From positions 5,536,001 to 5,600,000 of the forward strand of contig OZ242214.1 in NCBI GenBank assembly GCA_965206595.1: DNA of 64,000 nt, given 5' to 3'. The notes under the pieces were generated by a model. It saw nothing but the letters and a program-made list of their open reading frames with translations, did not search any database and was not told the origin of the DNA. Position numbers and translations under genes: made by a program. Of the stretch, positions 2,674 through 27,786 are shown piece after piece. The DNA is from Candidatus Latescibacterota bacterium. GTDB lineage: Bacteria > Latescibacterota > UBA2968 > UBA8231. Every line of letters starts with the position of its first letter. Position 1 is the stretch's first letter.

Positions 2674-5397
2674 TCATGGACTGCCGGTCAGTGAAATATC
2701 CAAGGCGATCCCTATGGGTGTTACCACCCGACGGATGTCTTGTACATGGGATCCGTCCAGGTTGGCGCTCTTGATACTGTCCGTGCCATTGTCGGCCCAG
2801 TAAATCTTTCCCCCGGCCAAATCCAAGGCCAGCCCCCTTGGTTCTCTAAGTCCGGTAGTAACGAGGTCTTCGATATGGGAGCCGTCGTAGTTGGCGCGTT
2901 GAATCCGGTCCGTGGTGGAATCCGCCCAGTAGATCTTTCTCCCCGCCACATCCAGGGTCAGCCCTACGGGTTCTCTCAATTCGGTGATGAGGTCTTCAAT
3001 TTGGGAGCCATCGAGGTTTGCGCGTTGAATTTTTTTTGCGCTCCTGTCGGTCCAGTACATTTTGCCCCCGGCCAAATCCAAGGCCAGCCCCCTTGGTTCT
3101 CTAAGTCCGGTAGTAACGAGGTCTTCGATATGGGAGCCGTCGAGGTCGGCCCGTTGGATCTTATCCGTGGTAGCGTCCGCCCAGTAAATCTTTCCTCCAG
3201 CCAAATCCAAGGCCACCCGCCTGGGTTCTCTCAGTCCGGTGACAAGGTCCTCGACATTGGAGCCGTCGAGGTCAGCTCGGTGAATAATATCCGTGCCTTT
3301 GTCGGTCCAGTACATTTTGCCCCCGGCAACATCCAGGGCAATCCCCAAAGGCAGATTCAATCCAGTAACGAGGTCTTCGACATTGGAGCCGTCGAGATTT
3401 GCCCGCTGAATTTTGCGCGAGTCCGCGTCGATCCAGTACATCTTCACCGCCCCCGACACGTTGAAGGTATAGGTCCTGAGGACCGCCTGGTCTAAGACCC
3501 TCCGCAGCTCCAATGCCGCCTGACCAGGACCGCATCCGGCCAAGTAGACCGTCTGGCCGTTCTGGCGCGTCATCCTGTCTTCCGGTTCCGCCGGGCACTC
3601 GTTGAAGGAACTGCTTGATTCGGCGACCAGAATCCTGGGAGTGGTCCCTGTGGGGTTGGCCACCACGTCGATCGCCTCGCTGGCCTGGACAGTAAACCGG
3701 TGCTTGCTGCCGTCCCTGGAAAACGTCACGGAGAATGGATCCGGAGTCAGTGAGGCGACGGGGGAATCAAGCGCCAGCCCCAAGGGGGCTCTCAATTCGC
3801 TGGTAAGGAGGTCTTCGACATCGGTGCCATCGAGGTCGCCCCGTTGGATTTTATTTGAGCCGGAGTCCGTCCAATAGATCTTGCCTGCCTCTACATCCAG
3901 GGCGAGTCCTTTCGGAATACTCAACCCGGTGGTGACGAGGTCCTCGACATCGGTGCCGTCCAGATTGGCCCTCTGAATTTTATCGGTGCTGTAGTCGGCC
4001 CAGTAGATCTTGCCGGCCTTTACATCCAGGGCAAGTCCCTCGGGACTGCTCAATCCGGTGGTGACCAAGTCTTCGACCTGGGAGCCGTCGAGGTTGCCCC
4101 GCTGAATTTTATTGGTGCCGTAGTCGGTCCAGTAGATCTTGCCCCGGATCAATTGCGTTTTGTGGTCCAGCCAGTAGATCTTTCCTGTCGACACGTCCAG
4201 GGCGAGGCTCAAGGGGTGAAGCAATCCGGTGGTGACGAGGTCTTCGACGTTTGACCCGTCGAGGTTTGCCCGCTCGAGCTTGTCGGTTCCCCGGTCCAGC
4301 CAGTACATCTTTCCACCTGCCACATCAAGGGCCAACCCCCTGGGATTGATCAAACCGGAAGTGACGAGGTCTTCGACGTTGGATCCGTCGAGGTTTGCCC
4401 GTTGAATCCTGGGCGGCCCTTCCGCCGTCCAGTACATCTTCCCGCTCGGGGTCACCGGTGAACCTGTCTCCGGCAACACGTAGTTGGTGAGGATAAGCCA
4501 CAAGTCGGTGGCATCGATCCGGCCGTCGCTGTTTACATCCCCGCGGGATATATCGCCGTTGTTCGGAATGGCGATGGAGCTGTCGAGGATGTACAGGACC
4601 ACCAGCAGCGCGTCGACGACATCGACCCGGCCGTTGTTGTCCACGTCGCCCGGCAGCCCGGTCGCCGCAACCTTCCCACGAGGGAGCCCAGCCTGTTTGA
4701 CCACGAAGTCAACCGGCCCCATGCCTGCCTCGACCCGAAAGGCCGGGTCCACATAGGTGACCAGCCCCGGTCCCGAGACGGTCAGGCCGTGGACCGGGGA
4801 GATTTTCTGCTTTTTCCCCTCGTCTTCTTGTGGAATACCTCCCGCGGATACTCCAGGGGCAGGAATTCCCGCTTGTCCGTCGATCAGCACCATGCGAAGG
4901 GTTGCACTCATCCCGCCGCCTTGCAGCCGGTAGAGATACACCCCGGCTCCTACGGCGCGACCGGCGGCATCCGTTCCGTCCCAACGCGCCGTGTGGGAAC
5001 CGGCCGGAAGTTCTTGGTCTACCAGGGTCACTACCCGCTGGCCCAGCAGGTTGAACACCTTCAGCCGTACATGGGTGGAGGCCGGCAGTTGATACGGGAT
5101 GATGGTGGAAGGATTGAACGGATTGGGATAGTTCTGGCCCAGATGAAATCGTTTTGGAAAGGACGACCCCTGGTCTTCCGGAGACAGCGCGAACCAGCCG
5201 TTTTCATCCGTGGTCGCAGCGGCCGTTTGACGCAGGTCCGTCAGGTCGAAGAGCATGACCTGGACCCCTGCCGCCGGCTGCCCGGAGGGCAGCCGCACCT
5301 GGCCTTCGAGCAGCGGCTCGGCCCAAGAGGGCAGGCAGGATCCAAGCCCGATGACAGCCAGACAAGGGAAAATGCGCTTCATGAATGGGGTCTGCAC
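2674..5397 (-). CDS. Secreted multidomain protein: signal peptide, FlgD-Ig/T9SS-like domain, dockerin-like domain and two LDL-receptor class B (YWTD) beta-propellers
   Basis: N-terminal hydrophobic leader; QNYPNPFNPST...GVYLYRL; duplicated GDVDNNGRVDVVDAL / GDVNSDGRIDATDL motif; 12 K(M/I)YW(T/L/A/I)(D/A)...(I/L)(Q/E)R(A/G)(N/D)LDGS units in two blocks of six. Confidence 0.9.
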   Translation of the reverse strand: MQTPFMKRIFPCLAVIGLGSCLPSWAEPLLEGQVRLPSGQPAAGVQVMLFDLTDLRQTAAATTDENGWFALSPEDQGSSFPKRFHLGQNYPNPFNPSTIIPYQLPASTHVRLKVFNLLGQRVVTLVDQELPAGSHTARWDGTDAAGRAVGAGVYLYRLQGGGMSATLRMVLIDGQAGIPAPGVSAGGIPQEDEGKKQKISPVHGLTVSGPGLVTYVDPAFRVEAGMGPVDFVVKQAGLPRGKVAATGLPGDVDNNGRVDVVDALLVVLYILDSSIAIPNNGDISRGDVNSDGRIDATDLWLILTNYVLPETGSPVTPSGKMYWTAEGPPRIQRANLDGSNVEDLVTSGLINPRGLALDVAGGKMYWLDRGTDKLERANLDGSNVEDLVTTGLLHPLSLALDVSTGKIYWLDHKTQLIRGKIYWTDYGTNKIQRGNLDGSQVEDLVTTGLSSPEGLALDVKAGKIYWADYSTDKIQRANLDGTDVEDLVTTGLSIPKGLALDVEAGKIYWTDSGSNKIQRGDLDGTDVEDLLTSELRAPLGLALDSPVASLTPDPFSVTFSRDGSKHRFTVQASEAIDVVANPTGTTPRILVAESSSSFNECPAEPEDRMTRQNGQTVYLAGCGPGQAALELRRVLDQAVLRTYTFNVSGAVKMYWIDADSRKIQRANLDGSNVEDLVTGLNLPLGIALDVAGGKMYWTDKGTDIIHRADLDGSNVEDLVTGLREPRRVALDLAGGKIYWADATTDKIQRADLDGSHIEDLVTTGLREPRGLALDLAGGKMYWTDRSAKKIQRANLDGSQIEDLITELREPVGLTLDVAGRKIYWADSTTDRIQRANYDGSHIEDLVTTGLREPRGLALDLAGGKIYWADNGTDSIKSANLDGSHVQDIRRVVTPIGIALDISLTGSP
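2810..3142. repeat. Identical 78-nt direct repeats within the YWTD gene (2810..2887 and 3065..3142)
   Basis: Manual comparison shows nucleotide identity, including at synonymous positions, with a 255-nt period. Confidence 0.85.
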
Positions 5398-5517
5398 AAC
5401 GTTCCCTCTTTGAATGTCATCCTGTCCGAAGTATCAGATTTTTTTGAACTTGCGGTTCGCAAGATGAACCATTTTCCTCATCCAAGTAGGACATTCATCT
5501 CAGGACTGATACCAAAT

Positions 5518-7008: not shown

Positions 7009-7156
7009 GTTTTCCGCCTGCTCTTCTTCATTTGGGCGCCTTGGACCGGAACCGCCGCCGTTATAAATTATAAGCCCATATAGATAATAAAGTTACGGCA
7101 CTTCCTGGATTTTCTGGACTTGGTGTAACGGGCGGCGTTTCGGAAGGTGAAAAAAC

Positions 7157-8161
7157 ATGGGCAAGGTTCTGGTGACCGGCGGGGCAGGTTTCATCGGCAC
7201 CCACCTGGTACGTCAGTTGAGCTCTGCGGGCGGCGATGTCCGCATTCTCGACAACTTCGACCCCCAGGTCCACGGGGAACGCAAACACCGCTACGGCACC
7301 GAGACAGCCGAGTACGTCACTGGCGACGTGCGCGATCCGGACAGGGTGGCGAAATGTCTCGACGGCGTCGACCGCGTCGTTCACCTGGCGGCCGCTGTCG
7401 GGGTCGGCCAGTCGATGTACGAGGTCAAGTACTACGTCGACGTCAACTGCAACGGGACCGCGGTCCTCTGGGAGGAGATCCTCAAGCTCCGCGACCGCAT
7501 CGAAAAAGTGGTGGTGGCCTCCTCCATGTCGATATACGGGGAGGGGGATCCCGGCTTCACCGGGGAGAACCACCCGCTTCGACCGACGTCCGTGTACGCC
7601 GTCACCAAGCGGGACCAGGAGGAGGTCTCCCTTTCCCTCGGCCGCGCCTACGGCATTCCGACCGTCGCCCTCAGGTTTTTCAACGTCTACGGCCCCGGGC
7701 AGTCCCTGAACAATCCCTACACCGGTGTGGCGGCGATCTTCGCCTCGCAGCTGTTGAACGGTCAGGCCCCCGTCATCTTCGGCGACGGCACGCAAACCCG
7801 CGATTTCGTCCACGTCCGCGACATCGTCCAGGGGATTACCCTTGCCCTCGACAGCTGCTGCCCCAGCGACTCCTACAACGTCGGAACCGGGGCCGCGACC
7901 TCGATCCTCGAACTTGCAGGACGCCTCGCCGGGGCGCTCGGTTTTACCGGTGAGATCGGACCGAGCGGCCGCGTCCGCGCCGGCGACGTCATCCACTGCG
8001 TCGCCGACATCGGCAAGATCCAGAAAGCCCTCGGCTTCGCGCCGCAGGTAACACTCGACTCGGGATCGCGGGATCTCATCGCCTGGGCAGGTGCACAGCA
8101 GGCGGAGGACCGCGTCGCCGGCGCCGTGGGCGAGCTCGAATCGCGTGGACTTCTCGAGTAG
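7157..8161 (+). CDS. NAD-dependent nucleotide-sugar epimerase/dehydratase (extended SDR)
   Basis: TGGAGFIG, YAVTK (YxxxK), RFFNVYGPGQ and TRDFVHVRD. Confidence 0.92.
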   Translation: MGKVLVTGGAGFIGTHLVRQLSSAGGDVRILDNFDPQVHGERKHRYGTETAEYVTGDVRDPDRVAKCLDGVDRVVHLAAAVGVGQSMYEVKYYVDVNCNGTAVLWEEILKLRDRIEKVVVASSMSIYGEGDPGFTGENHPLRPTSVYAVTKRDQEEVSLSLGRAYGIPTVALRFFNVYGPGQSLNNPYTGVAAIFASQLLNGQAPVIFGDGTQTRDFVHVRDIVQGITLALDSCCPSDSYNVGTGAATSILELAGRLAGALGFTGEIGPSGRVRAGDVIHCVADIGKIQKALGFAPQVTLDSGSRDLIAWAGAQQAEDRVAGAVGELESRGLLE

Positions 8162-8164
8162 CGG

Positions 8165-8989: not shown

Positions 8990-9106
8990 CCGCCGTGACC
9001 GCCACCCCACGCGGAACCGTAACCAACGGGTGTTCCGCTGCCATTATATATTGATTTAGGCGACAAAGGATACAGTTCTGGCTCCTCCATTGGTGAACCG
9101 CCGCCC

Positions 9107-10065: not shown

Positions 10066-10949
10066 GCACGCAGAGCAGACTCGAGCTGGGGTTGCCCTCC
10101 GGCAGCCTGCGCGACGCCACCGTCAACCTGCTGGGGCGGGCGGGCTACCGGCTGGGCCTGGCCTCGCGGTCGTACCAGCCTGAGATCGACGATCCCGAAA
10201 TCGGCGTGACCCTGTTCCGCGCCCAGGAGATCGCCCATTTCGTCGAGCGCGGCGTCGCCGACGCCGGCATCACCGGCAGGGACTGGGTCGAGGAGAACGA
10301 CGCCGACGTCGTCGAGGTCGGCGAGCTCCTCTACAGCAAGGCGACCTCGCGGCCCTACCGCTGGGTGATCGCCGTCCCGGAGGAATCTCCCATCCGCACC
10401 GTGAAGGACCTCGAGGGCAAGCGCATCGCCAGCGAGCTGGTCGGCGTCACCCGCCGCTTCCTCGCCGAACGGGGAGTCGAGGCCGAGGTGGAGTTCTCGT
10501 GGGGAGCGACGGAGGTGAAAGCCGGAATTCCGGGCGTAGCCGACGCCATCGTCGACGGCACCGAGACCGGCTCCTCCCTGCGCGCCAACCGGCTGCGCAT
10601 CGTCGAGACCATGCTCGAGTCGACCACCCGCCTGATCGCCAACAGGGATTCCTGGAGCGACCCCTGGAAGCGGCAGAAGATCCGGAACCTGTTCACCCTG
10701 ATGACGGGAGCCCTCGAGGCGGAGTCGAAGGTGGGCCTGAAGATGAACGTGCCGCGGGCGCAGCTCGACGCCGTGATGGAGCTGCTGCCGGCGCTGCACA
10801 CGCCGACGATCTCCAGCCAGGTCGACGGCGACTGGGTCGCGGTCGAGACCATTGCGGACGAGAAGATCGTCCGCGACCTGATCCCGCGGCTGAAACGGAG
10901 CGGCGCCGAGGGGATCATCGAGTATCCCCTGAACAAGGTGGTCTACTGA
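10062..10949 (+). CDS. hisG: ATP phosphoribosyltransferase (long form)
   Basis: [41 protein letters not shown] and a C-terminal regulatory domain ([12 protein letters not shown]). Confidence 0.95.
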
Positions 10950-12268
10950 TGCTCGACATCCAGCGCTGCTCCGACGCCGGCGCCCCCGCCACCGGCAAGC
11001 TGGCCGCGATCCTGAACCGCAAGGCCGGGTTCCCCGCGGAGATCGTCGAGGCCGTCGCCGAAATCCTGCGCCGCGTCGAGGCCGAGGGGGACGCCGCGGT
11101 CGCAGAGTACACCGGGAAGTTCGACGGCGTCGCCCTGGCCCCCGGCGGATTCCGCGTTCCGCGCAAGGCGCTCGACGACGCACGAGCGGCCATGGATCCG
11201 GAGCTCGAGGAAGCGGTCGCCGGCGCGGCCGCGAACATCCGGTCGTTTCACCGCCGCCAGCTGCGCGACTCCTGGTTCCTCGAGGACGGGGACGGCGTCG
11301 TCCTGGGGAAGCGGGTCCTGCCGTTGCGCCGCGTCGGCCTCTGCGTCCCCGGAGGGCAGACCCCGCTGCTGTCGACGCTGCTGATGACCGCGGTGCCGGC
11401 GCAGGTTGCCGGCGTCGAGGAGATCTGCGTCGTCACTCCGCCGCGCTCCGGAGGCCTGCCGCACCCGGTGATTCTCGCCACCGCGGCCAGGATGGGAATC
11501 GACGAAGTCTACGCCATCGGCGGCGCCCAGGCGGTCGCCGCCCTCGCCTTCGGCACCGGAACCATCAGGCCGGTCGACAAGATCGCCGGCCCCGGCGGCC
11601 CCTACACCGTCGCCGCCAAGCAGCAGGTCTTCGGCCGCGTCGGCATCGACACCGTCGCCGGCCCCTCCGAAATCGTCGTGCTCGCCGACGAGAGCGCCAA
11701 CCCCCGGTACGTCGCCGCCGACCTGCTGTCGCAGGCCGAGCACGGCAGCGGCTTCGAGGCCGCGGTCTGCATCACCCCGTCCGCAGCGCTCGCCGCCCAG
11801 GTGCAGGCCGAGGCGGAAAAACAGCTCGCCACCCTGCCGCGGCGCCGGGAGATCGCCGCCGCCCTGAAAGCCTTCGGCCTCGTCGTCACCGTGCCCGACC
11901 TCGCCGTAGGAGCCCGCCTCGTCGACCGCATCGCCCCGGAGCACGTCGAGCTGCTGGTCGCCGACCCGTGGCGCTGGCTCGGCGAGATCCGCAACGCCGG
12001 CGCGGTCTTTCTCGGCGCGGCCTCCAGCGAGCCGGTCGGCGACTATTTCGCCGGCACCAACCACGTGCTGCCCACGAACGGGGCCGCCCGCTTCTCCTCC
12101 GCCCTCGGCGTCGACGACTTCACAAGGACCACCAGCGTTCTCGGCTACAGCGAGCAGCGCCTCCGGCAGACCGGGCGGAAGATCATGCGCATGGCCAGGG
12201 CCGAAGAGCTCGAGGCTCACGCGCGGGCCATCGAGGTGCGCCTCGAAGAATACGGGAGGGACAGCTGA
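10949..12268 (+). CDS. hisD: Histidinol dehydrogenase
   Basis: ATG overlaps the hisG TGA; GGAQAVAALAFGT, DKIAGPG, DLLSQAEH, APEHVE and GDYFAGTNHVLPT. Confidence 0.95.
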   Translation: MLDIQRCSDAGAPATGKLAAILNRKAGFPAEIVEAVAEILRRVEAEGDAAVAEYTGKFDGVALAPGGFRVPRKALDDARAAMDPELEEAVAGAAANIRSFHRRQLRDSWFLEDGDGVVLGKRVLPLRRVGLCVPGGQTPLLSTLLMTAVPAQVAGVEEICVVTPPRSGGLPHPVILATAARMGIDEVYAIGGAQAVAALAFGTGTIRPVDKIAGPGGPYTVAAKQQVFGRVGIDTVAGPSEIVVLADESANPRYVAADLLSQAEHGSGFEAAVCITPSAALAAQVQAEAEKQLATLPRRREIAAALKAFGLVVTVPDLAVGARLVDRIAPEHVELLVADPWRWLGEIRNAGAVFLGAASSEPVGDYFAGTNHVLPTNGAARFSSALGVDDFTRTTSVLGYSEQRLRQTGRKIMRMARAEELEAHARAIEVRLEEYGRDS

Positions 12269-12867
12269 TGACGGCAGCGCAAGCCCGGACCGCCCGCGTC
12301 CGGCGCCAGACTTCCGAGACCGACATCGACCTCGAGCTCGGCCTCGACGGCAGCGGCCGCTGCGCCGTCGACACCGGCATCGGCTTCTTCGACCACATGC
12401 TCGACGCCTGCGCCCGGCACGGGCTGTTCGACCTGGAGCTGCGCTGCCGCGGCGACCTGGAGGTCGACCCGCACCACTCGGTCGAGGATGTCGGCATCTG
12501 CCTCGGGCAGGCCCTCGACCAGGCCCTCGGGGACCGCGCCGGGATCCAGCGTTTCGCCCACAGCTACGTGCCCATGGACGAAGCCCTGGCCCGGGTCGTC
12601 ATCGACCTTTCGGGCCGTTCCTACCTCTGCGCCGCCCCGGATTTCCGCGACCCGGAGGTGGGGGGCTTTCCCGTCTCCCTGGTCACCGAGTTCTTTCGCG
12701 CCCTCTCCGACCACGGCAGGTTCAACCTCCACGTCGACCTGCTGCGCTCGGGCAACGACCACCACGGCATCGAGGCGATATTCAAGGCCTTCGCCCAGGC
12801 CCTCGACCGGGCGACTCGGCTGACAGGCCGCAGCGACTCCATCCCCTCGACCAAGGGACGGCTGTAG
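12268..12867 (+). CDS. hisB: Imidazoleglycerol-phosphate dehydratase
   Basis: TGATG coupling; TGIGFFDHML, HHSVEDVGI, PMDEALA, NDHHGIEAIFKA and IPSTKG. Confidence 0.95.
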   Translation: MTAAQARTARVRRQTSETDIDLELGLDGSGRCAVDTGIGFFDHMLDACARHGLFDLELRCRGDLEVDPHHSVEDVGICLGQALDQALGDRAGIQRFAHSYVPMDEALARVVIDLSGRSYLCAAPDFRDPEVGGFPVSLVTEFFRALSDHGRFNLHVDLLRSGNDHHGIEAIFKAFAQALDRATRLTGRSDSIPSTKGRL

Positions 12868-12945
12868 CATCCTGTCCGCTCGGCTCGGCCCCGGGAACAG
12901 CGGCCCCCGGGGAATCCCGGCGCCGCGCCCGGCCCGTGAAACAGC

Positions 12946-14061
12946 ATGAAGATCTGCCACCTCATCTACGACGACGTCGACAACCCCTGGCTCGGCGGCG
13001 GCGGCGCTTACCGTGCCCGCCAGATCTACCGGCGCCTCGCCGGGCGCCACGAGATCACCCTGGTCACCGGCACCTTTCCCGGCGCCGAACCCGTGCAGCT
13101 GATCGACGGCCTGCGCCTGCTGCGGGTCGGCTCCCCGCGCAGCTACGCGATCAGCCGCCTCACCTACGCCAGCCGCGCCGTCGCTGCCCTCCGGCGCCTG
13201 CAGTGGGACATCTGGGTCAACGAGTTCTCCGCGTACGCGCCGCTGCGGGTGCCGGCGCAGGTGCGCCGCCGCGGGCTCCTGTTCTTCCACCATTTCATGG
13301 GCCGCCACGCCGTCCTCAAGCATCCCCTGGCCGGGTGGGCTGCCCTCCTGGCCGAGCGCCGCGTCCTCCACGCCTACCCCCACATCCTGACCGGCGCCCC
13401 GAGCGTGCAGGAGCGCATCCGCAGCCGCGTCAGCGCAACCCTGCCGGTCGACTGCGTCTACAACGGCGTCGACGACGGCTATTTCGGAAGCGCCGCCACC
13501 GAGGAGCCCTACCTCCTCTACCTCGGGCGCATCGACGTGCACACCAAGGGGATCGACACCCTGCTGGAGGCGTTCGCGCGCATCGCCCCGGAGCGCCCCG
13601 GCCTGGCGCTGAAGATCGCCGGGGGAGGTGAGAAGGGTCAGGTGCGGCGGCTCGAGAAGCTGGTGGAGCAGGCGCGGCTCGGCGCCAGGGTGGAGCTGCT
13701 CGGAAGGGTGTCGGAAACCGGGAAACGCGAGCTGCTGGCGTCGGCCCTGTTTTTCTGCATGCCCTCCCGCTACGAGGGCTGGGGCATGGCCGCGGTCGAG
13801 GCCGGGGCCAGCGGCAAGGCCGTGGTCGCCACCGCCATCGACGGCCTGCGCGACGCCGTCCTCGACAACGTCACCGGCCTGCTGGTGCCGAGCGGGGACG
13901 GCAAAGCCCTGGCCGCGGCCATGCGCCGGCTCCTCGACGAACCCGGGCTGCGGAAGTCGCTCGGCGAGCAGGGGCGGGAGCACTCCCGCCGCTTCGGCTG
14001 GGACCAGCTCGCCCGCCGCCAGGAAGAGGTGATGATCGCCGCCGCGGAGCGTCTCCCATGA
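12946..14061 (+). CDS. Glycosyltransferase family 4
   Basis: GGGAYR, VYNGVD, YLGRI..KG and PSRYEGWGMAAVEA (EX7E). Confidence 0.92.
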   Translation: MKICHLIYDDVDNPWLGGGGAYRARQIYRRLAGRHEITLVTGTFPGAEPVQLIDGLRLLRVGSPRSYAISRLTYASRAVAALRRLQWDIWVNEFSAYAPLRVPAQVRRRGLLFFHHFMGRHAVLKHPLAGWAALLAERRVLHAYPHILTGAPSVQERIRSRVSATLPVDCVYNGVDDGYFGSAATEEPYLLYLGRIDVHTKGIDTLLEAFARIAPERPGLALKIAGGGEKGQVRRLEKLVEQARLGARVELLGRVSETGKRELLASALFFCMPSRYEGWGMAAVEAGASGKAVVATAIDGLRDAVLDNVTGLLVPSGDGKALAAAMRRLLDEPGLRKSLGEQGREHSRRFGWDQLARRQEEVMIAAAERLP

Positions 14062-16580
14062 GCAGGAAGAAACGCCGCACCACCGGAGCGCCGGAAGCGC
14101 GGCCGGCCCCCGTCCAGGCCCCGAAAGCAGACAGGTTCCGCTTCCGCCTCGCCTCCCCCTGGACGGTTCCGGCCATCCTCGCGCTCCTGACCCTCCTCTA
14201 TTTCTACGACTTCCCCCTCAGCGGCCAGGTCGTCTACGGAAGCGACACCGGCACCGATTTCCACCGCGGCAAGGAGCCCTTCGCCGAGAAGCTCGCGAAC
14301 TACGGCCCCGGGGCCTGGAAGCCCACCCTCGGGGGATACCCGGCTTCCGAGGAGATCCGCCCCGACTTCTTCCCGGCCAGCCTGCTGAAGCTGTTCACCA
14401 CCCATCAGCGCCACCTCGGCTGGCGCTACCTGCTCACCGTCTTCCTCGCCGGCTGGGGGATGTACCGCTTCCTGCGCGCCCTCTCCCTGGCCCGCTGGCC
14501 CTGCCTGTGGGGCGGCGTCGCCTTCATGTTCGCGCCGACCTTCCTGTCCTTCACCTTCGCCGGCCACTACGCCAAGATGGCCGTCATCGCCCTGCTGCCC
14601 TGGATGTACCTCTGCCTTCACCGCGGCATGCAGGAGGGGAAGCTCTCGCGCTTCCTCTGGCTGGCCCTGCTGATCGGCCTCGGCGCCTACACCCCGCACG
14701 TGCAGATGCTCCAGTACGCCCTCGTCGCCGTCGGCCTCTACTTCCTGTTCCAGCTCTACCTCCTCTACCGGGAGCGCCGTGAAAAGCGGGTGCTGCTGGC
14801 CAGGACCGGGCTCTTCACCCTCGCCGTCGCCCTCGGAATCGGCATCGGTTCGGAAGGGCTGTTTCCCCCTTACCTGCACGCCACCCGCGAGTCGAAGCGC
14901 TCCGAGGCCGCCACCGCCGCAAGGACCGGGGACGAGCTGGCCCTGGCGCGCAGCTGGTCCCTGCACCCGGAGGAAGTAGGGTCGCTGCTGGTCCCGGAGT
15001 TCGCCGGCTTCTACAACCCCCAGAGCAACCGCGACCACTACTGGGGCCGCAATCCCGGCAAGTACAACTCCGAGTACTTCGGCATCGTCGTGCTGCTGCT
15101 GGCGCTCCCCGCCCTGTGGTCGTGGCGGCGCAACCCCACCGTGGCCTTCATGGGCTTGCTGTTCGCCCTCGCCCTCGCCTTCACCCTCGGCGGGCACACC
15201 CCCGTGCACTGGCTCGCCGCCCACCTGCTGCCCGGGGGCAAGGTGCTGCGCTCCGTCGGCATGGCCGCCTTCCTGTTCGCCTTTCCCGCCATCGTGCTCG
15301 CCGCCACCGGCCTGCATCAGGCCGTCACCGCCGGGGAACCGGACAGACAGCTCATCCGCAAGCGCCTGCTGATCGCCGCCGCCGCTCTCGCCGCAATCGC
15401 CGCCCTCGCCGCTGCCGTCCCGCACACCGTCCTGGAAATCTGGACCGCCCTCCTCTACGACGGGATCTCCGCGGCCAAACGCCGGATCATGCTCTCCGGG
15501 GCCCCCGGGCTTGCCCGCGGCGGACTCCTCGCCACCCTGCTCTGCGCCGGGGCCGCCGCCCTCGTCTGGGCCCTGCTGCGCCGGAAGCTCTCGGCCGCGA
15601 CCGCCTGCGCCGGGCTGATCGCCCTGACCCTGGCCGATACCTGGCGCATCGACCGCCTCTTCCTGGTATACGAGGATCCCGCCCGCTGGCCGGACATTCG
15701 CCGCGACAACCGCCGCACCCTGAAGTTCCTCGAGGCCTCCGGCGAGCGCTTCCGCGTCTTCCCGATCCCCTCCTGGCAGCTGCTGCGCTCTCCGGGCCAT
15801 CACCTCTACGGCGCCGACCCGGTCACCGGCTTCAGCGACTTCACCATCCGCCGCTACGACCGCCTCGCGCGCGAGTTCGACCCGGCCCTGTCCCTGTTCC
15901 AGGCCCGCTTCGGCGGCCGCGAGATTCCCTACGGCGACGACGACCTGCTGCTCTCCATGCGCCCCCTGCTCAACCTCGTCAACGCCCGCTACCTCGTGAC
16001 CCCGAAGTCCCTGCCGCTGCAAACGACCCTGTTCCCGGAAGTGTTCTCGGAGGAGAGGCTCCGTCTCTACGAGAACAGCGAGGCCCTGCCCTGGTACTAC
16101 CTCGCTCCCTCGTACAAGCTGGAAACCGAAGAAGACGAGATCCTGGCGCTGCTGCGGGAAGGCCGCGCCGACCCCCGGCTCACCCCGGTGCTGGAGCGGC
16201 AGCCCCCCGGCCCGCTGCCAACCACCGCGGCCGCCAGCGATCTCACCGGCGACCGCCTCGATCTCGAGGAGCGCGCCGACGACGGCAGCCGCATCAGCCT
16301 CGCCACCGGCTCGAAGGAGCCGCGGCTGCTGGTCGTCTCGGAGAACTACTACCCCAACTGGCGCGCCTTCATCGACGGGGAAGAAGCCCCGGTCCTGCGC
16401 GCCAACTACGTCTGGAAGGCCGTTTACCTGCCGCCGGGGGATCACCGCGTCGAGTTCCGCTACCGCTCGCCGACCGTGCTGATGACGCGAGCGGTCACCC
16501 TGCTTTCGCTCGGAGCGGTGCTGATTCTCGGAATCGTCGAGAGCCGCCGGAGATCGGTGCCGGCAGCCGGGAAACCATAG
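14058..16580 (+). CDS. YfhO-family integral membrane protein (GT-C-type glycosyltransferase)
   Basis: About 12 TM segments; C-terminal LLVVSENYYPNWRAFIDG...LRANYVWKAVYLPPGDHRVEFRY is characteristic of YfhO. Confidence 0.85.
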   Translation: MSRKKRRTTGAPEARPAPVQAPKADRFRFRLASPWTVPAILALLTLLYFYDFPLSGQVVYGSDTGTDFHRGKEPFAEKLANYGPGAWKPTLGGYPASEEIRPDFFPASLLKLFTTHQRHLGWRYLLTVFLAGWGMYRFLRALSLARWPCLWGGVAFMFAPTFLSFTFAGHYAKMAVIALLPWMYLCLHRGMQEGKLSRFLWLALLIGLGAYTPHVQMLQYALVAVGLYFLFQLYLLYRERREKRVLLARTGLFTLAVALGIGIGSEGLFPPYLHATRESKRSEAATAARTGDELALARSWSLHPEEVGSLLVPEFAGFYNPQSNRDHYWGRNPGKYNSEYFGIVVLLLALPALWSWRRNPTVAFMGLLFALALAFTLGGHTPVHWLAAHLLPGGKVLRSVGMAAFLFAFPAIVLAATGLHQAVTAGEPDRQLIRKRLLIAAAALAAIAALAAAVPHTVLEIWTALLYDGISAAKRRIMLSGAPGLARGGLLATLLCAGAAALVWALLRRKLSAATACAGLIALTLADTWRIDRLFLVYEDPARWPDIRRDNRRTLKFLEASGERFRVFPIPSWQLLRSPGHHLYGADPVTGFSDFTIRRYDRLAREFDPALSLFQARFGGREIPYGDDDLLLSMRPLLNLVNARYLVTPKSLPLQTTLFPEVFSEERLRLYENSEALPWYYLAPSYKLETEEDEILALLREGRADPRLTPVLERQPPGPLPTTAAASDLTGDRLDLEERADDGSRISLATGSKEPRLLVVSENYYPNWRAFIDGEEAPVLRANYVWKAVYLPPGDHRVEFRYRSPTVLMTRAVTLLSLGAVLILGIVESRRRSVPAAGKP

Positions 16581-16723: not shown

Positions 16724-17053
16724 ATGACTCCTACTCCTGAAACAATCGCCATCATCGCCACCGGCGTGACCTTGGCGGCGCTGATCTTGCAGCAGATGCG
16801 CAGCCTTGGCGCCCGGTTCGACCGGCTGGAAGCCCGTATCGCTCGTCTTGAAGCGGGCCAACAGGCGCTGGTCGAGCGCGTGACTCGTCTGGAAGCGGGC
16901 CAGCAGGCCCTGGAGCGTGAAGTGACAGCGCTGAGGGTCGAGGTAAAGTCGTTGGCGCGCGACTTGGCGGCGCTGAGCGAGCGCACCGCGCGCATCGAAG
17001 GCGCCGTCATCGGCCCCTGGCGGCCGGAGGAAGCCGGCACCGGCAAGAGCTGA
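16724..17053 (+). CDS. Small membrane-anchored coiled-coil protein
   Basis: N-terminal TM (IAIIATGVTLAALIL), heptad repeats with RLEAGQQAL twice (42-nt period) and C-terminal ERTARIEG. Confidence 0.75.
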   Translation: MTPTPETIAIIATGVTLAALILQQMRSLGARFDRLEARIARLEAGQQALVERVTRLEAGQQALEREVTALRVEVKSLARDLAALSERTARIEGAVIGPWRPEEAGTGKS

Positions 17054-17139: not shown

Positions 17140-17270
17140 TGTCTTACCGGTCGTCGACCACATCCCCTTTGATGAAGTCGCGGCAGGGCTCCCCTTTTGC
17201 CCTTGGTTCCGCTGCAAGCTGCCGCTTTTTCGACGAGTTGCGGCAGCAGCGAGGTTACCCAAAATCAGCC

Positions 17271-17299
17271 TTGACATTCCCACAGCGCAGTCATATTAT
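17271..17299 (+). promoter_or_regulatory. Putative sigma70 promoter P2 of the large surface-protein gene
   Basis: TTGACA (17271-76), 17-nt spacer, TATTAT (17294-99); shares CCTTGACATTCC with P1. Confidence 0.65.
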
Positions 17300-17517: not shown

Positions 17518-20500
17518 ATGCATTTTAGCAGAAAACTGATTCTTCTCACCGCGTTCATGGTGGGCTTGGGCTTCGTCGGAAGCGGCGAGGTGCACGCCGC
17601 GGCGCTGGTCAAGAGCGTGCAGATCACCTCGCCGGACAGCGGCGCCCTGCTCGGAATCGACGGGAAGTTCCAGGTTCGCGTCTCGGTGGAGGACTTCCTG
17701 GAGCAGGACGACCTCAGGGTCTACATCTTCCTGGCCAAGGAACGGCCGATTGACCCCCGGGGCAAACTGTTGACGAAGACGAGTCCCTGATCCGAGAACC
17801 GAGGTGCAGTTGCCCGACAACATCAACGGAGACCTCTCAACTTCGGAAATGATAGCAGGGAATACTTGCGGGGGGACCTCGAGGCATGACTAACTTCCGT
17901 GCCGGGGTTCGGCGTTGAAGGGAGCCAAGAACCGGACGGCTCATCCTTTCCGACAGGGGCAGAACGATGGGGCTGCAGACCGGAGGATTACCCGATGGCG
18001 GTCGACGGCGATTCGCTGGTCCTGGTAAGCACAAGCGGACGACACACGGTGTTCGTCTGGTACGGAAAGGTGCCACACTCATCCGGTACGAGGAGGCCAA
18101 GGTAATCAGGGCCGCGGCTTTCGTCATGACGACCCCGACTGACCCGGGATTCCGTGTTGCCTATTCGAAGGAGACGATCAGCATCGACGCCGACCGTACG
18201 CCAAGCCCCGCACCCGACATCCAATGGAGACCTTCCGTTTATAACCCGATGGGCTCGGACTTTTTGGGATTTGGACGGCCCAGAGATTTCAGTTACATCG
18301 GCCAGGAGATGGACTGGATCGGGACGACAATGGCGATGGCACTAACGGCGACTTTTACACCAGGACAGGAAGTGGATACGAACTGGACATGGATGTTGGG
18401 AGGTTCGGTGCCGTAAACAGGCATGTCGGCACCTCCAGCTTGAATACCGATCACGGGGTTCTGGGCATCGGGGATACCCTCAAGCTCTGAATGTCCTTGG
18501 GAACCTCGGACGCCTACCGGGGCACGGATGACTACAACAAGCTCATTCTCGATATCTTCGGCAAGGAGAGGCTCGTCTACCAGAGGGACGTTTCCAGTCT
18601 CCGCGCAACGGGGATGTCGTGACCTATAACTTCGGTCTCAAGGAAGGAGGATTTCGACGACTTCAGCGAGGGCAAGGAATCACGATTCCGATGGCAGCCA
18701 GGACGACCGGGAAGCCGACGCTATCCCTCACGCGCCAACCCCCGACGGTATTACCGATACCTTGCATTCTTTTTTGTCGACAAGGCCGGCAATCGCAGCA
18801 AGGGCCAGCTAGCGCTGAAAGGAGACGAGCGATCAGGATGAGGCCGGGGGACTCCGGTTGGAGCCGCCGCCATAACGAAGCTGCTTTTCGACGCCAAGAA
18901 GCCGGTGCTCGACTCCGTCAACGGCGACACCATCCTTCCGGTCAGCGTCGATACCATCAGCGACGGCAGCCGCAAGGCCGAGCGCGGCCGTCGCATCGGG
19001 TGCGGACGACAACCCGGATGACCTATAAGTTGAACAGCACTCTCGACTCGCTGGTCGTCAAGTTCGACGGGGCCGAGCAAGACAACCCTTCCGATAGAGC
19101 AGGCCGGTCTCGCGATCAACGGCGATGATCTTCTTGAGGGCACTCAGGGTTCTCCACTGAAAAACACTCCGAGTACACGGTCGATTTCACCCAGTTCGGC
19201 GAGACGGAGCCGCAGTTGGAAGGTGAAGACGCAACGGGCAGTCAGATACTCGTGTGGGTTTCCAAAAAGGGGATAAGCTCGTTAGACCATTTCGAGGTGG
19301 ATTACGGCCAAAAGGAAGAGGTCGGCTGAAGACCGGCATGTACACGATCAAGTTTCACCGGGACCGATGTCGCCGGTAACGTAGGCCCGACGCTGACCCG
19401 CGAGAACGTCTACGTCGACGTCGACGAACATCGATTTCATCCGCTCCTTCCCGTTTGGCGAAGGAGCCGAGGAATCCGGTCTCGACACCATTGAGGCGAA
19501 GACTGCGGTGGTCGTCTTTCGCTGAGTGAGCCTGCCGACTCCGTATCGATCGAAGTACAAGGGGATCGCCTCGGGAGCGGACGCGGATTCAAACGAGGTG
19601 GACAGCAGTCGCGGACCTACCAGCTCGTCGGTGGCCAGCTGACCAACACCACCTCCCAGCAGAAGTTCCCGATCCCCGGGCTCCAGCACGACAACCAGTA
19701 CATCCTGCAGGTCCGCTCGCGATCTGAACGGCAACTGGTTCGAGTCGGGCGGATACCTTCTGGTACAACACCGACCTTCGTAGTTCCGCAGGCCGCCAAG
19801 TTTGCCGTCAAGGTCACGGTGCCGGACTGAATCGGGCAACGGGCGATGCAAAACCGCTCTCGATAAGGATATTGAGACGGGTGAGATCGGTAACTCTGTC
19901 GGCCTTGGCGGTCACCGACGGAAATGACGCCGTCACCTACGACCAGCCTGCAACCCTGACGATCGCCGGCAGTGAAGGTATTGATTTGATCGAAGACAAG
20001 AGCGTCGGTGCCACCGACAACGGAGATGGAACCATTTCGTTGAACGGTGAGGACTGGGTAATCGGTCGCGCGACATCGTTTTTTCCGGATACCGTTACGT
20101 CGGGGAGACCCTCACTATCAGCATTGAAGCGGATGACGATTCCACCCTGGTTGGGGAAGCGGACTCGGTGACGGTTATCATCCCGACGCTTACAACCAGA
20201 TCCTCGTGTAAGCCCCGGACACGGTCACGCAGGGCGAAAACTTCATGGTTGATGTCGTGATCGCCGACAAGTTTGGTAACCAGCGGGTGGAGGACAACCG
20301 CTTCGTGGCCGTAAGCACCAACACGATCGGGGTCCAGGTTCCGCCGGAGAGGCGTTTCACATTTCCAAGGGCGCCGGCAGCTTTCATGGTCAACAGTTCC
20401 GGCTGGTCCGGTGGCGATCTGACTCTTACTGTCCGGGATATCGCTGCCCAATTGAAAAGAGCGACCTGAAAAGGCTGTTGAGACTTTGGTCGCCAACAGG

Positions 20501-22434
20501 CTCGGCACGGAACGGCCACTGTATATGTCAAGGCCTCCGGAGAGCCTGCTCCTCCTGATCCGGACGCCGAGATCGACGCCCCGGATCAGCTGGTTGCCGA
20601 GGATTACCGCGGCGCCAGTGGCGAGGGCGACCAGGGCGGTTTCGTTCTGCTGACCTGGGACGCGTCCGACGATCACGATACCCTCGACAAGTACCGCATC
20701 TACCGCGAGATCGCAGTGACCACTGACGCGGACTCTACCGGTGCTCTGGTTACCTTGGAAGAGCCCGCAGCCGCGGCCGTCCACTGGGGCACGGTCGATG
20801 CCATTCCAGGCGCGGATGTCATGCGCGTCGTCGTGGCCACCCTCGATTCGGATGCCGCGCGTTTCGCGGTGGCAGCCGAACGGGATGGTCAGAGCACCCT
20901 CAAGCAGGCCTTCGGGTTCGGCGAGGGTGTTGCCAATCAATACGAGCTGATGGCTCAGACCATGTCCAGGAGCAAGGAAGCGGCAGCTCCGGTTTCCGAT
21001 GCTCCGGTTTTCGCTACCCTGAGCCCGGAAGCCCTGGCTTTCCAGGCCAAGGGGATCGTTCCGCTGCTGAAGGGCATCGAGAACGACGTGCTCCTGTCTG
21101 CGATGACCTATTCGGAAGTGGTCAAGGCCATCGACAATATTCCGCCGGGTGCGGTTCCTTACCTGAAGGTGCTCGACACTCCGGTCGATGCCGGCGGCAG
21201 CATCACCGTTGCCTGGACCAGGTCTCCTGACGATCGCATCCTGACCACCACGGTCGGAAATGCTGTCGGCAGCAGCCAGGTTTACACGGTCGCCGGCGTC
21301 GAGGGCTACAACGTCTATCGCAAGATCGGCGACGCGGCCTTCGAGCTGATCGGCCAGGCTGGGGCGGGCGAGGATTCCTTCGCTGACGCCACTGTCTTCA
21401 ACGGCGTGCGCTACACCTACCAGGTGAAGCCCTACGACATGGACAACATCACCGAGAGCGAGTTCGAGGGGACGGCGATGGCGATCCGTAACCGGGTTCA
21501 TGACGCCAACGGCAACCCCGTTCTCGGACTATTCGGGAGTGACAATCAGGTCGGTTTTGACGACTTCTTCATCCTCGCGGACCAGTTCGGTATGACCGTT
21601 GAGGACGCGTCTTTCGAGCCGGCTTTCGACCTCAGTCCCAACAACAAGATTGATCTCAACGACTTCTTCACTTTTGCCGATTTCTTCGGCAGGACGGCGG
21701 AAGGCGCTGGGAAGGCGTTGCCGATCTCGATGGCTGGTCTGAACAGCGACGCTCGCTTCTACCTCGACGCCGGCAGCGAGTTGCCGAGGGTCGGAGAGGA
21801 GTTGGCGCTACTGGTCAGCTTGCAGGACTTCGTCGAGCTCCAGGGCTACGGGTTGGGCGTAAGCTACGATCCGCAGGTTCTGACCTACGTGGGTGCAAGG
21901 GTGGAGAACGGCATCCTGGGCGCCGGCGACTTTGCTGAAGGTCAGCTGGTGTCCCGGAAGGACGGGCTCCTGTCGCTCGCCGCTTTTGGCGACGTGGCCA
22001 CCGAAGGCGATCTCGGTCTCAGCCTCGTCTTCCGCTCTCTGAGGGAGATCGAGGACAGCTACATCGACATCGTTGACGCCGAGGTCAGAGACGGCAACTA
22101 CGGCTTGAACACGCTGGCCACTCCGGTTTCGGTACGGATTCAGACACGTCCCGAAGTCTACGCGCTTCGGAACAACTACCCGAATCCGTTCAACCCGGAG
22201 ACCACGCTCAAGTACGACTTGCCGGATGCTGGTGACGTGAAGCTGGAAGTTTACAATATGCTGGGGCAGGTGGTCAGGACTCTGGTCAATGAGCACCAGA
22301 CCGCCGGCCGTTACGCGATCCAGTGGGACGCCACCAACGAACACGGTCAGAACATGTCTTCGGGGATCTACTTCTACCGCGTCCAGGTAGGAGGCGAGTT
22401 CACCGACGTCAAGAAGATGCTGCTGCTCAAGTAG
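17518..22434 (+). CDS. Very large secreted surface (S-layer/scaffold-like) protein with dockerin-like, cohesin-like and C-terminal FlgD-Ig/T9SS-like domains; 5' ~3 kb multiply frameshifted in this sequence
   Basis: GAGGAG RBS, then MHFSRKLILLTAFMVGLGFVGSGEVHA signal peptide. Ig-like fragments switch frame through 17750-20480 (VDKAGN, GTDVAGNVG, ADKFGNQR). The frame is open from 20482 to 22434, with FN3-like segments, DNQVGFDDFF/NNKIDLNDFF, GYGLGVSYDPQVL and NYPNPFNP...KKMLLLK. Confidence 0.75.
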
Positions 22435-22457
22435 TCGGAGGGCAAGGCAGCGAAATT

Positions 22458-22492
22458 GAGACGGGACCCTGCCCTCGCGGGGTCCCGTACTC
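22458..22492 (+). terminator. Strong hairpin after the large surface gene (terminator or mRNA stabiliser)
   Basis: GAG-ACGGGACCCTGC-cctc-GCGGGGTCCCGT-A-CTC; only a weak U tail. Confidence 0.55.
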
Positions 22493-22583
22493 ATATTAGA
22501 CGGAAACTATGAGAGCAGAAGCTGAACGCAGTTCAATCGGGATGGCCAACTTGGGTAACGTATCATTGATCAGGAGAGAGGAA

Positions 22584-24125
22584 ATGCTCAACCGCGTGCG
22601 AAAGGCCGCGCCATTTGCCCTCGCCTTCGTAATCGTTCTGGCTGGTGTAGCTTTCGCAGGTGACAATGAAAATGTCACCTTTTCTACTACCAGTGATACG
22701 GAGGTGGCCGGGATAGGTGCTGGGGGAACGGTTTCCCTCAACGTCACCGGATCGGGTATGGTCGGCGTATCCCAGTATGACATGACAATTACAGTCACCC
22801 CCGCCGACGCCTTCGACATGGCGGCAACGGCGTTCACCCCTGCACCCGACTTTATCGCTCCGGGAACGGAGGTGGATGAAGGTTGGGTGAAAGTCGGTGC
22901 GGCAAATTTCAGCGGGTCAATCGATGGGGATTCTCCTCTTGGGGATTTCGTTCTGACCGCTTCGGAGTCCTTTGATGTGGCTACGGAAGCGACCATAACC
23001 GTTTCCATGGTGTCCGTCGGCCCTTCTTCCACTGACCGCGATGAGTTCGATGCCGATGCGGTCGGCATTTCAATCACGGTGAACCCCCCGATTACCGAGC
23101 CCAGGTTGTCAGCCGTTGGCGCCACCGACCTCAGTCTTGATTTTTCGGCGATGGTCGGTGAGGGAGGTACTGCTGACGGCAGCTCCGGAGAGGTGACCCT
23201 CGGGGTCAACTTCATGGACGCGACCGGGGCGGCAATGGAGAACCAGGAGGTCACCTGGTCGATAACCAACAACGGCGCCGAGTCTGTTTTTCTGCTTGGG
23301 GACGACCTCCGGGAGATAACGGCTAACACTGCGGACGTGGCGGTGACTTCCACCACCGGTGCCGATGGCTTGGCCTCTATTACCCTGGACTGCGAAGGGG
23401 ACGACGATTCCGGGAGCACCAGTGTCACCCTTTCCGCCAGCACCAGCGCCCTCAATTCCGTAGGGGAGTCGCTCGATCTAAGTGTGGGGTTCAGCATCAC
23501 TTGGGACGTTCCGGTTCCGGCAGAGTTGGCGAGCTTCGCCGCGGAAGTTACCGGTGACCGCGAGGTCTTGCTGAGGTGGGGGGTTGTTTCCCAGACCAGC
23601 AACCTTGGCTGGGAGATATTCCGCAGCACCGATGATTCCGTTTACGAGCGGATCGGCGATTTGGTTCCGGGAGAGGGTACGATCGATGTTTTCACGACCT
23701 ACGATTTCATTGATTCCAACCCACCCCTTTCCGAGGTAGTCTACTACTATCTCAAGCAAATAGACCTCGATGGCTCTTCAACGCGTTCGCAGGTGATTTC
23801 GGTCTTTTTCGGTTCCACCGTTATCGACCTCGATCTGGTCCCGACCGTTACTGCTTTGGGCCAGAATTTCCCCAACCCGTTCAACCCCGAAACGACCATA
23901 AGCTTCGACTTGGCCGCACAAGCCCAGGTCACGCTGACCGTTTACGATGCCACCGGCCAGACCGTTCGGACGCTGGTTAACGGCGAGTATTTTTCAGCTG
24001 GAAACTACCGGCGGGTCTGGAACGGGCTGAACCGGAACGGGGAGGCTGTAGGTTCGGGGGTGTACTTCTACGAGTTGAATGCAGGGGAGTTCACCTCGAT
24101 GAAGAAGATGACCTTGGTCAGATAA
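22584..24125 (+). CDS. Secreted acidic Ig/cohesin-like protein with a C-terminal FlgD-Ig/T9SS-like domain
   Basis: RBS AGGAGAGAGG before ATG 22584; signal peptide ending VAFA; PAELASFAA...YYYLKQIDLDG; QNFPNPFNP...KKMTLVR. Confidence 0.85.
   Translation: MLNRVRKAAPFALAFVIVLAGVAFAGDNENVTFSTTSDTEVAGIGAGGTVSLNVTGSGMVGVSQYDMTITVTPADAFDMAATAFTPAPDFIAPGTEVDEGWVKVGAANFSGSIDGDSPLGDFVLTASESFDVATEATITVSMVSVGPSSTDRDEFDADAVGISITVNPPITEPRLSAVGATDLSLDFSAMVGEGGTADGSSGEVTLGVNFMDATGAAMENQEVTWSITNNGAESVFLLGDDLREITANTADVAVTSTTGADGLASITLDCEGDDDSGSTSVTLSASTSALNSVGESLDLSVGFSITWDVPVPAELASFAAEVTGDREVLLRWGVVSQTSNLGWEIFRSTDDSVYERIGDLVPGEGTIDVFTTYDFIDSNPPLSEVVYYYLKQIDLDGSSTRSQVISVFFGSTVIDLDLVPTVTALGQNFPNPFNPETTISFDLAAQAQVTLTVYDATGQTVRTLVNGEYFSAGNYRRVWNGLNRNGEAVGSGVYFYELNAGEFTSMKKMTLVR

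Positions 24126-26755: not shown

Positions 26756-27786
<1,031 letters not shown>

Follow-up and report, generated by a model that had tools for sequence, protein, structure and literature searches.

Among the high-affinity protein connectors of bacteria, cohesin–dockerin pairs are understood best, but what they do outside cellulose degradation is largely untested. In the non-cellulosomal pairs of Clostridium perfringens, single cohesins sit in multi-modular secreted proteins and join proteins without a multi-cohesin scaffoldin. Among surface proteins of another kind, TfsA and TfsB of Tannerella forsythia are paired surface-layer (S-layer) proteins and type A cargo of the secretion system known as type IX (T9SS), and neither is known to contain a cohesin or dockerin. 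Here we analysed a stretch of 64,000 nucleotides of a Candidatus Latescibacterota bacterium (assembly GCA_965206595.1, contig OZ242214.1, positions 5,536,001 to 5,600,000), called the window at its full length, and three of its genes, P1, P2 and P3, whose products carry dockerin, cohesin and T9SS-type modules. This region may hold pieces of a non-cellulosomal cohesin–dockerin surface assembly system of Candidatus Latescibacterota, a reading that we hold tentatively, at somewhat less than an even chance.

By analogy, such a system would work most like the C. perfringens pairs, whose cohesins (NagJ/GH84C and GH33; 2jh2, 2o4e, 2ozn, 2w1n, 2vo8) are the best matches to the P2 cohesin in both profile and fold. 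The C. perfringens proteins are, however, Gram-positive enzymes with catalytic domains, whereas the proteins described here have none, belong to the Fibrobacteres–Chlorobi–Bacteroidetes (FCB) lineage and would be anchored by a T9SS tail; in P2, moreover, dockerin and cohesin belong to one chain, with the dockerin directly upstream. The clostridial cellulosome (types I, II and III; CipA, ScaA, ScaB) uses the same two module families. It differs from the present proteins, which have one cohesin each, no carbohydrate-binding module (CBM), no glycoside hydrolase (GH) cargo and no S-layer homology (SLH) or sortase anchor, and in which the P1 dockerin lies near the N-terminus and not at the C-terminus. 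The definition of a cellulosome, a multi-cohesin scaffoldin with a CBM and dockerin-bearing GHs, does not fit the proteins of the window.

Like TfsA and TfsB, P2 and P3 have C-terminal TIGR04183 domains and are encoded by adjacent genes for Ig-rich surface proteins beside glycosylation genes; unlike that cargo, P1 carries its TIGR04183 copy internally, and the T9SS of this genome is putative. A cohesin of Archaeoglobus fulgidus (2xdh), which came at rank 20 in the P2 fold search, is likewise non-cellulosomal but differs from P2 in lineage and architecture and has no T9SS tail. Peer et al. (2009) reportedly surveyed cohesins and dockerins in organisms that are not cellulolytic. Within the FCB group, a cellulosome-like complex was inferred in silico for Candidatus Stygibacter (Cloacimonadota); excerpts of that paper describe a 3755-aa scaffoldin with tandem cohesins and CBM2/CBM3, enzymes with C-terminal dockerins, and dockerins also on non-glycosidase proteins (PMC8542988). 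As far as those excerpts go, its cohesin protein resembles P2 in bearing a C-terminal T9SS domain for surface attachment, and the Latescibacterota proteins differ from it in having a single dockerin–cohesin (Doc-Coh) cassette and a family of leader dockerins on eukaryote-like repeats (PMC8542988).

P2 is a single gene on the plus strand (17518-22434, about 1640 codons), and the modules that carry our reading lie in its intact 3′ part.

17518..20481, plus strand: 5′ part of P2, signal peptide and variable Ig-rich region, interrupted by some 29 frameshifts and by three in-frame stops (frameshift-aware alignment to the relative P0123, three-frame reading, frame plot)
20482..22434, plus strand: 3′ part of P2, an intact frame of 650 codons with Fn3-like region, dockerin-like module, cohesin and T9SS tail (83% identity to the relative P0004)
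21496..21723, plus strand: dockerin-like module of P2, aa 339-414, F-rich, with ..GFDDFFILADQFG.. and ..IDLNDFFTFADFFG.., first Ca loop degenerate (family hidden Markov model, HMM)
21727..22143, plus strand: cohesin module of P2, aa 416-554 (HMM, Foldseek, profile against PDB)
22177..22419, plus strand: C-terminal T9SS type A sorting domain of P2 (TIGR04183, Por_Secre_tail, FlgD_ig)

Directly before the tail, P2 thus carries a fixed cassette in which a conserved linker of 25 residues joins a divergent dockerin-like module to a cohesin. A preliminary description, made from the DNA letters alone, had proposed a dockerin/EF-hand-like pair at about 21530-21690, a cohesin-like domain at about 21760-22130, and a PNPFNP tail on both P2 and the next gene, P3. 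All of these were recovered: the HMM located the core of the dockerin-like module at 21529-21702, the cohesin followed immediately, and the tail of P2 scored 41.5 bits with TIGR04183 (cutoff 23; aa 566-646 of 650), 32.3 with Por_Secre_tail and 45.5 with FlgD_ig. The 300 residues on the 5′ side of the dockerin are Fn3-like, which we give as a lead only. When the window was translated in six frames, HMMs found a single P2-type cohesin and two dockerins, one of the P2 type and one of the P1 type.

The single window sequence matched Pfam Cohesin (PF00963) at E=0.013 and 16.1 bits, under the cutoff of 24.1, and its dockerin-like module gave no match to Pfam Dockerin_1 even at E≤10. Against PDB, the same sequence found a ScaB cohesin (E=0.011) and a B. 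cellulosolvens dockerin (E=0.02), and six of its nine weak matches were cellulosomal modules. Some relatives of P2 are annotated with PF00963, and the protein P0198 scores 33.4 bits for Cohesin. With a profile of 32 family sequences (A2), the matches to PDB dockerins became strong, at E=2.6e-11 for 2y3n_B and 5e-8 to 9e-8 for the X-dockerins of CipA and ScaB, as did those to cohesins, at E of about 2e-9 for C. perfringens NagJ (2jh2/2o4e) and 1.5e-8 for ScaB (3l8q); 3kcp_A, 4u3s_B and 3l8q_A were also among the PDB matches, and a profile of the closer family (A1) matched both kinds of module at about 6e-4. The second loop of the P2 dockerin keeps D-x-S-x-N...D..D, and in the A2 alignment distant relatives have canonical Ca loops.

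The AlphaFold2 model of the two domains (predicted local distance difference test, pLDDT, 87.5; predicted template modelling score, pTM, 0.80) shows two helices and then ten strands (residues 99-227). In a Foldseek search of PDB with this model, 38 of the 39 listed rows were cohesins, the other being an integrin chain; the best was 2jh2_A (E=2.5e-8, TM 0.77), and the non-cellulosomal C. perfringens modules 2jh2/2vo8 reached TM 0.77-0.80. As modelled, the P2 module has a true cohesin jelly-roll fold, and the pTM of 0.80 suggests a fixed arrangement of dockerin and cohesin. A phmmer search of 1.8 billion representatives with the 228-residue two-module stretch returned 831 proteins at E≤1e-3, a set of representative clusters that includes cohesin-only matches. 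At E of about 1e-11 to 1e-14, it included the multi-cohesin proteins P0195, P0222 and P0240; such matches carry 6, 10 or 12 Pfam cohesin stretches, and P0240 combines 10 cohesins with CBM_3 and Dockerin_1.

Some proteins have the P2-type dockerin-like module and no cassette. Among 16 phmmer matches to the dockerin-like half only, five were propellers of the NHL/PQQ type, and Pfam (E≤1e-3) found neither Cohesin nor Por_Secre_tail in any of the 16. Nine of 11 dockerin-only proteins that were inspected end within about 10 residues of the module, and six have signal-like N-termini by eye. A dockerin alone at the C-terminus of secreted propellers is the classical architecture of cargo and implies a receptor on another protein, which argues for the P2-type dockerin being a portable plug whose receptor lies elsewhere. 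The cohesin of the Doc-Coh cassette would be its obvious candidate receptor. Among the phmmer matches, P0210, P0239, P0252, P0260, P0259, P0182, P0207, P0220 and P0189 look like secreted NHL/PQQ-like propellers that terminate in an F-rich dockerin-like module of the P2 type and have neither a cohesin nor a T9SS tail.

The same cassette could also be read as a closed intramolecular unit, in which dockerin, linker and cohesin form a rigid base by the membrane anchor and have no receptor, P2 and P3 are merely abundant coat proteins, and the P1 dockerin is unrelated. Of 17 loci in which a cohesin was matched, 14 do have the dockerin next to it, the linker is conserved (K85 and G93 nearly invariant in A2; G410, K411, P414, G419 and N421 invariant in A1), and the pTM of the two-domain model suggests that the domains pack together. 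A P2-type dockerin standing alone on secreted propellers without cohesin makes little sense, however, unless its receptor is on another protein, and three loci (L010, L013, L021) have a cohesin without a detectable dockerin-like module, so that we judge a closed unit unlikely.

P3, the gene that follows P2, encodes a second candidate component.

22584..24125, plus strand: P3, an all-beta protein of 513 aa with signal peptide, N-domain, Ig-like and Fn3-like domains and T9SS tail (start from orthologues, AlphaFold2, synteny)
22653..23108, plus strand: N-terminal beta-sandwich of P3, aa 24-175, possible remote cohesin relative (hhalign, Atlas)
23868..24110, plus strand: C-terminal T9SS type A sorting domain of P3 (TIGR04183)

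The tail of P3 reached 33.8 bits with TIGR04183 against a cutoff of 23 (aa 429-509 of 513), and the AlphaFold2 model is all-beta (pLDDT 83.1). A family search gave 153 matches, with 44-84% identity among the matches listed. Judged from their sequences, P2 and P3 are both exported by Sec and rich in Ig/Fn3 domains, and each terminates in a T9SS type A sorting domain. The preliminary description had also suggested a cohesin-like N-terminus for P3. When the whole P3 profile (A3) was aligned with A2, hhalign matched the shared sorting tail alone, and the alignments were therefore cropped. The N-domain then aligned end to end with the P2 cohesin profile at 93% probability (E 3e-7), or 80% (E 1.4e-5) in a second alignment, against at most 8% for control alignments with unrelated domains. 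In a language-model Atlas, the nearest named clusters lay at 0.89-0.90 with 175-178 features shared, and Pfam Cohesin occurs on 13-25% of the members of these clusters. Foldseek with the whole 513-aa model returned generic multi-Ig matches at TM ≤0.22, uninformative on the N-domain. The N-domain is possibly a remote cohesin relative. Four orthologues carry it in tandem duplicate (L003 at 11981-13282, L004, L014 at 10480-11775, and L016), and a P3-like protein of L008 has a more canonical cohesin at the position of the N-domain (14763-14927).

The adjacency of P2 and P3 is conserved among Latescibacterota genomes. The order Doc-Coh gene, P3-type gene, ThiS, MoaE was found in seven loci (L001, L002, L003, L004, L006, L008, L011), with one extra gene in L008. 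A YfhO gene lies upstream in five of these seven (L002, L003, L004, L006, L011) and in two further loci (L014, L016), and a glycosyltransferase gene of family GT4 in three. There is a promoter-like site before P2 and a terminator-like hairpin after P3, and the conserved pair is possibly an operon; P1 lies outside this locus. The promoter-like site is a consensus match alone, with no evidence of function.

17271..17299, plus strand: promoter-like site TTGACA-17-TATTAT, 11/12, upstream of the P2 start (consensus scan)
24156..24185, plus strand: terminator-like hairpin 3′ of P3, stem of 12 pairs and T-rich tail (consensus scan)

The third protein, P1, lies on the opposite strand and brings a dockerin of another type.

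2674..5397, minus strand: P1, secreted protein of 907 aa with YWTD (low-density lipoprotein receptor class B) propeller and N-terminal dockerin leader (Pfam)
4474..4653, minus strand: canonical type I dockerin of P1, aa 249-308, two Ca-loop and helix repeats (Pfam PF00404)
4888..5130, minus strand: complete homologue of the T9SS type A sorting domain in P1, aa 90-170, with the motif NYPNPFNP (TIGR04183)

A duplicated Ca-binding motif, seen by the preliminary description at about 4480-4655 in this YWTD protein, proved to be a full Dockerin_1 domain (model positions 1-57; 39.4 bits against a cutoff of 22.9) with the repeats DVDNNGRVDVVD and DVNSDGRIDATD; across all six translated frames of the window, the dockerin HMM of the P1 family found this site and no other. 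The propeller scored 311.7 bits for Ldl_recept_b in 11 stretches. Upstream of the dockerin, Pfam gave half a CarboxypepD_reg domain under its cutoff (aa 30-72) and FlgD_ig at 30.1 bits (aa 105-158), a stretch covered by an NCBIfam match to TIGR04183 (35.2 bits, cutoff 23, over model positions 2-70 of 72). In locus L019 (5601-7751), a relative has a signal peptide, CarboxypepD_reg and dockerin as in P1, followed by leucine-rich repeats (LRR), and lacks the T9SS-type domain. Because residues 4-80 and 203-295 of P1 are contiguous in that relative, the sorting-type domain of P1 is nested inside CarboxypepD_reg. The conserved leader of 320 residues is thus predicted to combine a signal peptide, a canonical dockerin and, between them, CarboxypepD_reg with the T9SS-type domain nested in it.

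A search with the first 320 residues of P1 returned 3306 proteins at E≤1e-3 among 8000 scored, many of which may match solely through the common sorting-type domain. The 120 relatives listed are 56-100% identical over 83-100% of these residues and differ in their C-terminal domains. In a sample of 36 leader proteins, Pfam found Dockerin_1 and FlgD_ig in 35 each, Ldl_recept_b in 23, CARDB in 9, NHL in 5, LRR in 3 and ankyrin in 1, while no GH was among the 25 Pfam families listed; the sample was hand-picked below 930 aa, with the L019 relative added, and was mostly pre-listed with PF00404. The nested T9SS-type domain is kept in 35 of the 36. By these sequence comparisons, P1 falls into a very large family of paralogues whose eukaryote-like repeat cargo is variable. 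Several members lie on contigs of the same length, and genomes therefore probably hold several copies of the leader. Relatives of the P1 leader, of P2 and of P3 would share genomes, as contigs of equal size suggest (e.g. 5503661, 3602209, 6408101 and 7258427). We ruled out that P1 arose by accidental fusion of a small protein with a C-terminal sorting domain (CTD) and a dockerin gene, because 35 of the 36 sampled relatives have the same architecture. A near-identical relative (P0390, 1332 aa) has about 425 extra residues in mid-protein, compared with which P1 seems rearranged and shortened. Remnants of YWTD repeats lie past the P1 stop in another frame (2460-2654).

From these parts a mechanism can be proposed. 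After export, T9SS would cut the C-terminal tails of P2 and P3 and anchor both proteins on the outer membrane, which would put the P2 cohesin beside the cell surface. There it could capture proteins with a P2-type dockerin, namely the secreted beta-propellers that end in this module, and also neighbouring P2 molecules, building a coat. Proteins of the P1 family would plug, through their own and different dockerin, into the P3 N-domain, the P2 cohesin or a cohesin encoded elsewhere in the genome. A predicted complex of the P3 N-domain (aa 24-175, A3) with the P1 dockerin (aa 240-314, A4) and two Ca reached ipSAE values of 0.02 and 0.05, where 0.32 is the mark, which is neither support nor counter-evidence. 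The preliminary description had gone in the same direction, with a scaffold that polymerises into a surface layer and docks eukaryote-like cargo such as receptor-type propellers for host interaction and not for polysaccharide degradation. Its cargo idea holds in that proteins with YWTD, LRR, ankyrin, NHL or CARDB repeats share the dockerin leader of P1, and cohesin and dockerin proteins with T9SS tails and no carbohydrate-active domains do exist here; the link of P1 to P2 and P3 is weak, the dockerins of P1 and P2 being of different types and P1 being unlinked to the pair. Polymerisation into a layer and a role in host interaction are putative.

A more far-reaching version of the proposal can be formulated, in which T9SS-anchored cohesin–dockerin plugs on P2 and P3 display an expanded repertoire of YWTD, LRR, ankyrin, NHL and CARDB proteins, each addressed by its leader, as a modular apparatus for adhesion or host interaction without degradative function, the nested T9SS-type domain being a new, non-C-terminal use of this fold. 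We find this version conceivable but rather doubtful.

Several observations weigh against a common surface assembly system. The dockerins of P1 and P2 differ in type, with hhalign aligning one Ca loop at a probability of 40%, and the first Ca loop of the P2 module has no acidic residues at positions 1 and 3 (L and G). The P3 N-domain profiles (A3, A5) match no PDB cohesin, and none of 12 copies of this domain matches Pfam Cohesin at E≤10. The T9SS-type domain of P1 is internal (aa 90-170 of 907) and not C-terminal in location, and no homologue of porU, porV, sprA or gld was found among the genes scanned in the 64-kb window. On the side of gene order, L014 and L016 have YfhO, a CTD protein without Doc-Coh match, P3, ThiS and MoaE; no P3 occurs in the fetched flank of the Doc-Coh loci L005, L007, L009, L015, L018 and L020; no P1-like gene occurs near the P2/P3 pair in any of nine syntenic loci; and the leader gene was found in L019 alone, whose 20 kb hold neither a Doc-Coh nor a P3 module. 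Because the leader proteins were hand-picked, below 930 aa and mostly known to carry PF00404, the frequencies in that sample are biased. Finally, this assembly has no continuous P2 frame with a signal peptide.

The state of P2 bears on whether the gene is alive at all. The preliminary description called its product a large surface protein, and while the modules are real, the open frame is not there. A frameshift-aware alignment to P0123 (1560 aa) starts at the signal-peptide Met (17518), extends to the last codon (22431) and contains 29 frameshifts and 3 in-frame stops, all within 17735-20385, the 5′ 60% of the gene; from 20385 to 22431 there are zero frameshifts. Full-length relatives measure 1441-1700 aa or longer. 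At 13 orthologue loci, all 11 genes with their 5′ end inside the fetched locus are intact open reading frames (ORFs) of 532-3175 aa with hydrophobic N-termini, so the disruption is peculiar to this assembly. The 3′ part is 83% identical to P0004 over 99% of its length, and the C-terminal 650 aa are 52-83% identical across 120 listed relatives. Homopolymer miscalls were rejected as the source, because two of the 29 events lie near a run of at least four, against 4.7 ± 2.0 at random, and an alternative genetic code is no remedy, since the recoding of stops cannot mend 29 frame changes. The clean last 2 kb would not be expected of a gene that had decayed over its whole length for the time needed to collect 29 indels. 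Either the variable 5′ part has truly decayed here, or this strain-variable stretch was mis-assembled or badly resolved.

These facts lend themselves to a reading without any system, in which P1, P2 and P3 are independent secreted proteins that share modules of the FCB lineage and are co-located by chance, P2 being dead. It is favoured by the 12 kb of housekeeping genes (his, glycosyltransferase and flippase) behind which P1 lies from P2, by P1 not being syntenic, and by frameshifts and stops that simple homopolymer miscalls do not explain while the other window genes keep long coding frames unbroken in the frame plot. The P2/P3 adjacency kept in seven loci, and the frameshift-free last 2 kb of P2 with their 83% identity to P0004, speak against it, and chance co-location appears improbable to us.

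Very unlikely, finally, is a cellulosome-like system degrading carbohydrates or other polymers, in which dockerin enzymes would be encoded at other places of the 7-Mb genome and the repeat proteins would bind substrate: a polysaccharide-synthesis cluster flanks P2 (Pfam), an excerpt of PMC7081726 mentions 'cellulosome-affiliated enzymes' of Latescibacteria with reference to Farag et al. 2017, and excerpts of PMC8542988 infer such a complex, with a CTD-bearing multi-cohesin scaffoldin, in another FCB phylum, but neither GH nor CBM was found in P1, P2, P3 or P0123 or among the families listed for the leader proteins, each protein has one cohesin and no tandem array, and the dockerin-only proteins examined are propellers and not enzymes. 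The preliminary description had likewise recognised no GH domain in the three proteins, and Pfam agrees for them as for P0123.

A full-text search of Youssef 2015 (PMC4454575) for cellulosome, cohesin, scaffoldin and type IX found none of these terms. Our literature search returned no paper on dockerins linked to eukaryote-like proteins or on Latescibacteria cohesins, with Farag 2017 and Peer 2009 outside its scope. The single cassette of dockerin, cohesin and tail, the dockerin-only propellers, and the leader-dockerin family with its nested sorting-type domain appear to be new features.

The genes surrounding P1, P2 and P3 are ordinary chromosomal genes. The window has a G+C content of about 65%, with 0.55-0.61 in the three genes against 0.67-0.715 in their flanks, and labelled relatives in public collections are assigned to Candidatus Latescibacterota or, in some records, to Gemmatimonadetes. 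They include hisG and hisD, genes for glycosyltransferases, for a flippase of the Wzx type and for a YfhO-like membrane protein, and those for ThiS/MoaD, MoaE, TsaD, FtsK, RF2, ClpC, BamA, Skp, FabZ, HtpG and Ddl; none of these belongs to the T9SS.

12946..16580, plus strand: GT4 glycosyltransferase and a membrane protein resembling YfhO, both conserved upstream of P2/P3 (Pfam)

This gene pair stands upstream of P2/P3 in several Latescibacterota loci, and the neighbourhood may hint at glycosylation of the P2 and P3 surface proteins. Between YfhO and the promoter-like site of P2, a small coiled-coil ORF (16724-17053) contains a 42-nt tandem repeat (16842-16926).

Other parts of the window deserve a brief mention. 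The first 2700 nucleotides have a lower G+C content (0.50-0.55) and hold an ORF of 554 aa resembling S-adenosylmethionine (SAM) methyltransferases (778-2442, minus strand). A subtilase (Peptidase_S8, 33369-35231) bears a weak T9SS-type tail, at 19.3 bits below the TIGR04183 cutoff of 23 and at E=2e-6 with a family-specific CTD HMM. At 39482-43245, a McsB-like ATP:guanido phosphotransferase lies immediately 5′ of ClpC, a pairing best known from Gram-positive bacteria. Two ORFs with a coding-like frame signal match no Pfam or NCBIfam family (25565-26749, 394 aa; 27664-29961, 765 aa), the former being syntenic in nine loci. A WelO5-like halogenase (50710-51609) and a PhyH-family dioxygenase (53423-54358) stand amid housekeeping genes.

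A compact cassette of dockerin, cohesin and sorting tail thus recurs in many uncultured bacteria of the FCB group (the 831 clusters at E≤1e-3, cohesin-only matches included), together with dockerin-only secreted propellers as its potential ligands and a very large family of dockerin-addressed eukaryote-like repeat proteins. If the pairs bind, they would provide new orthogonal connectors for protein engineering, and the system would offer a model, open to testing, for the way in which uncultured bacteria build a non-enzymatic surface and vary it.

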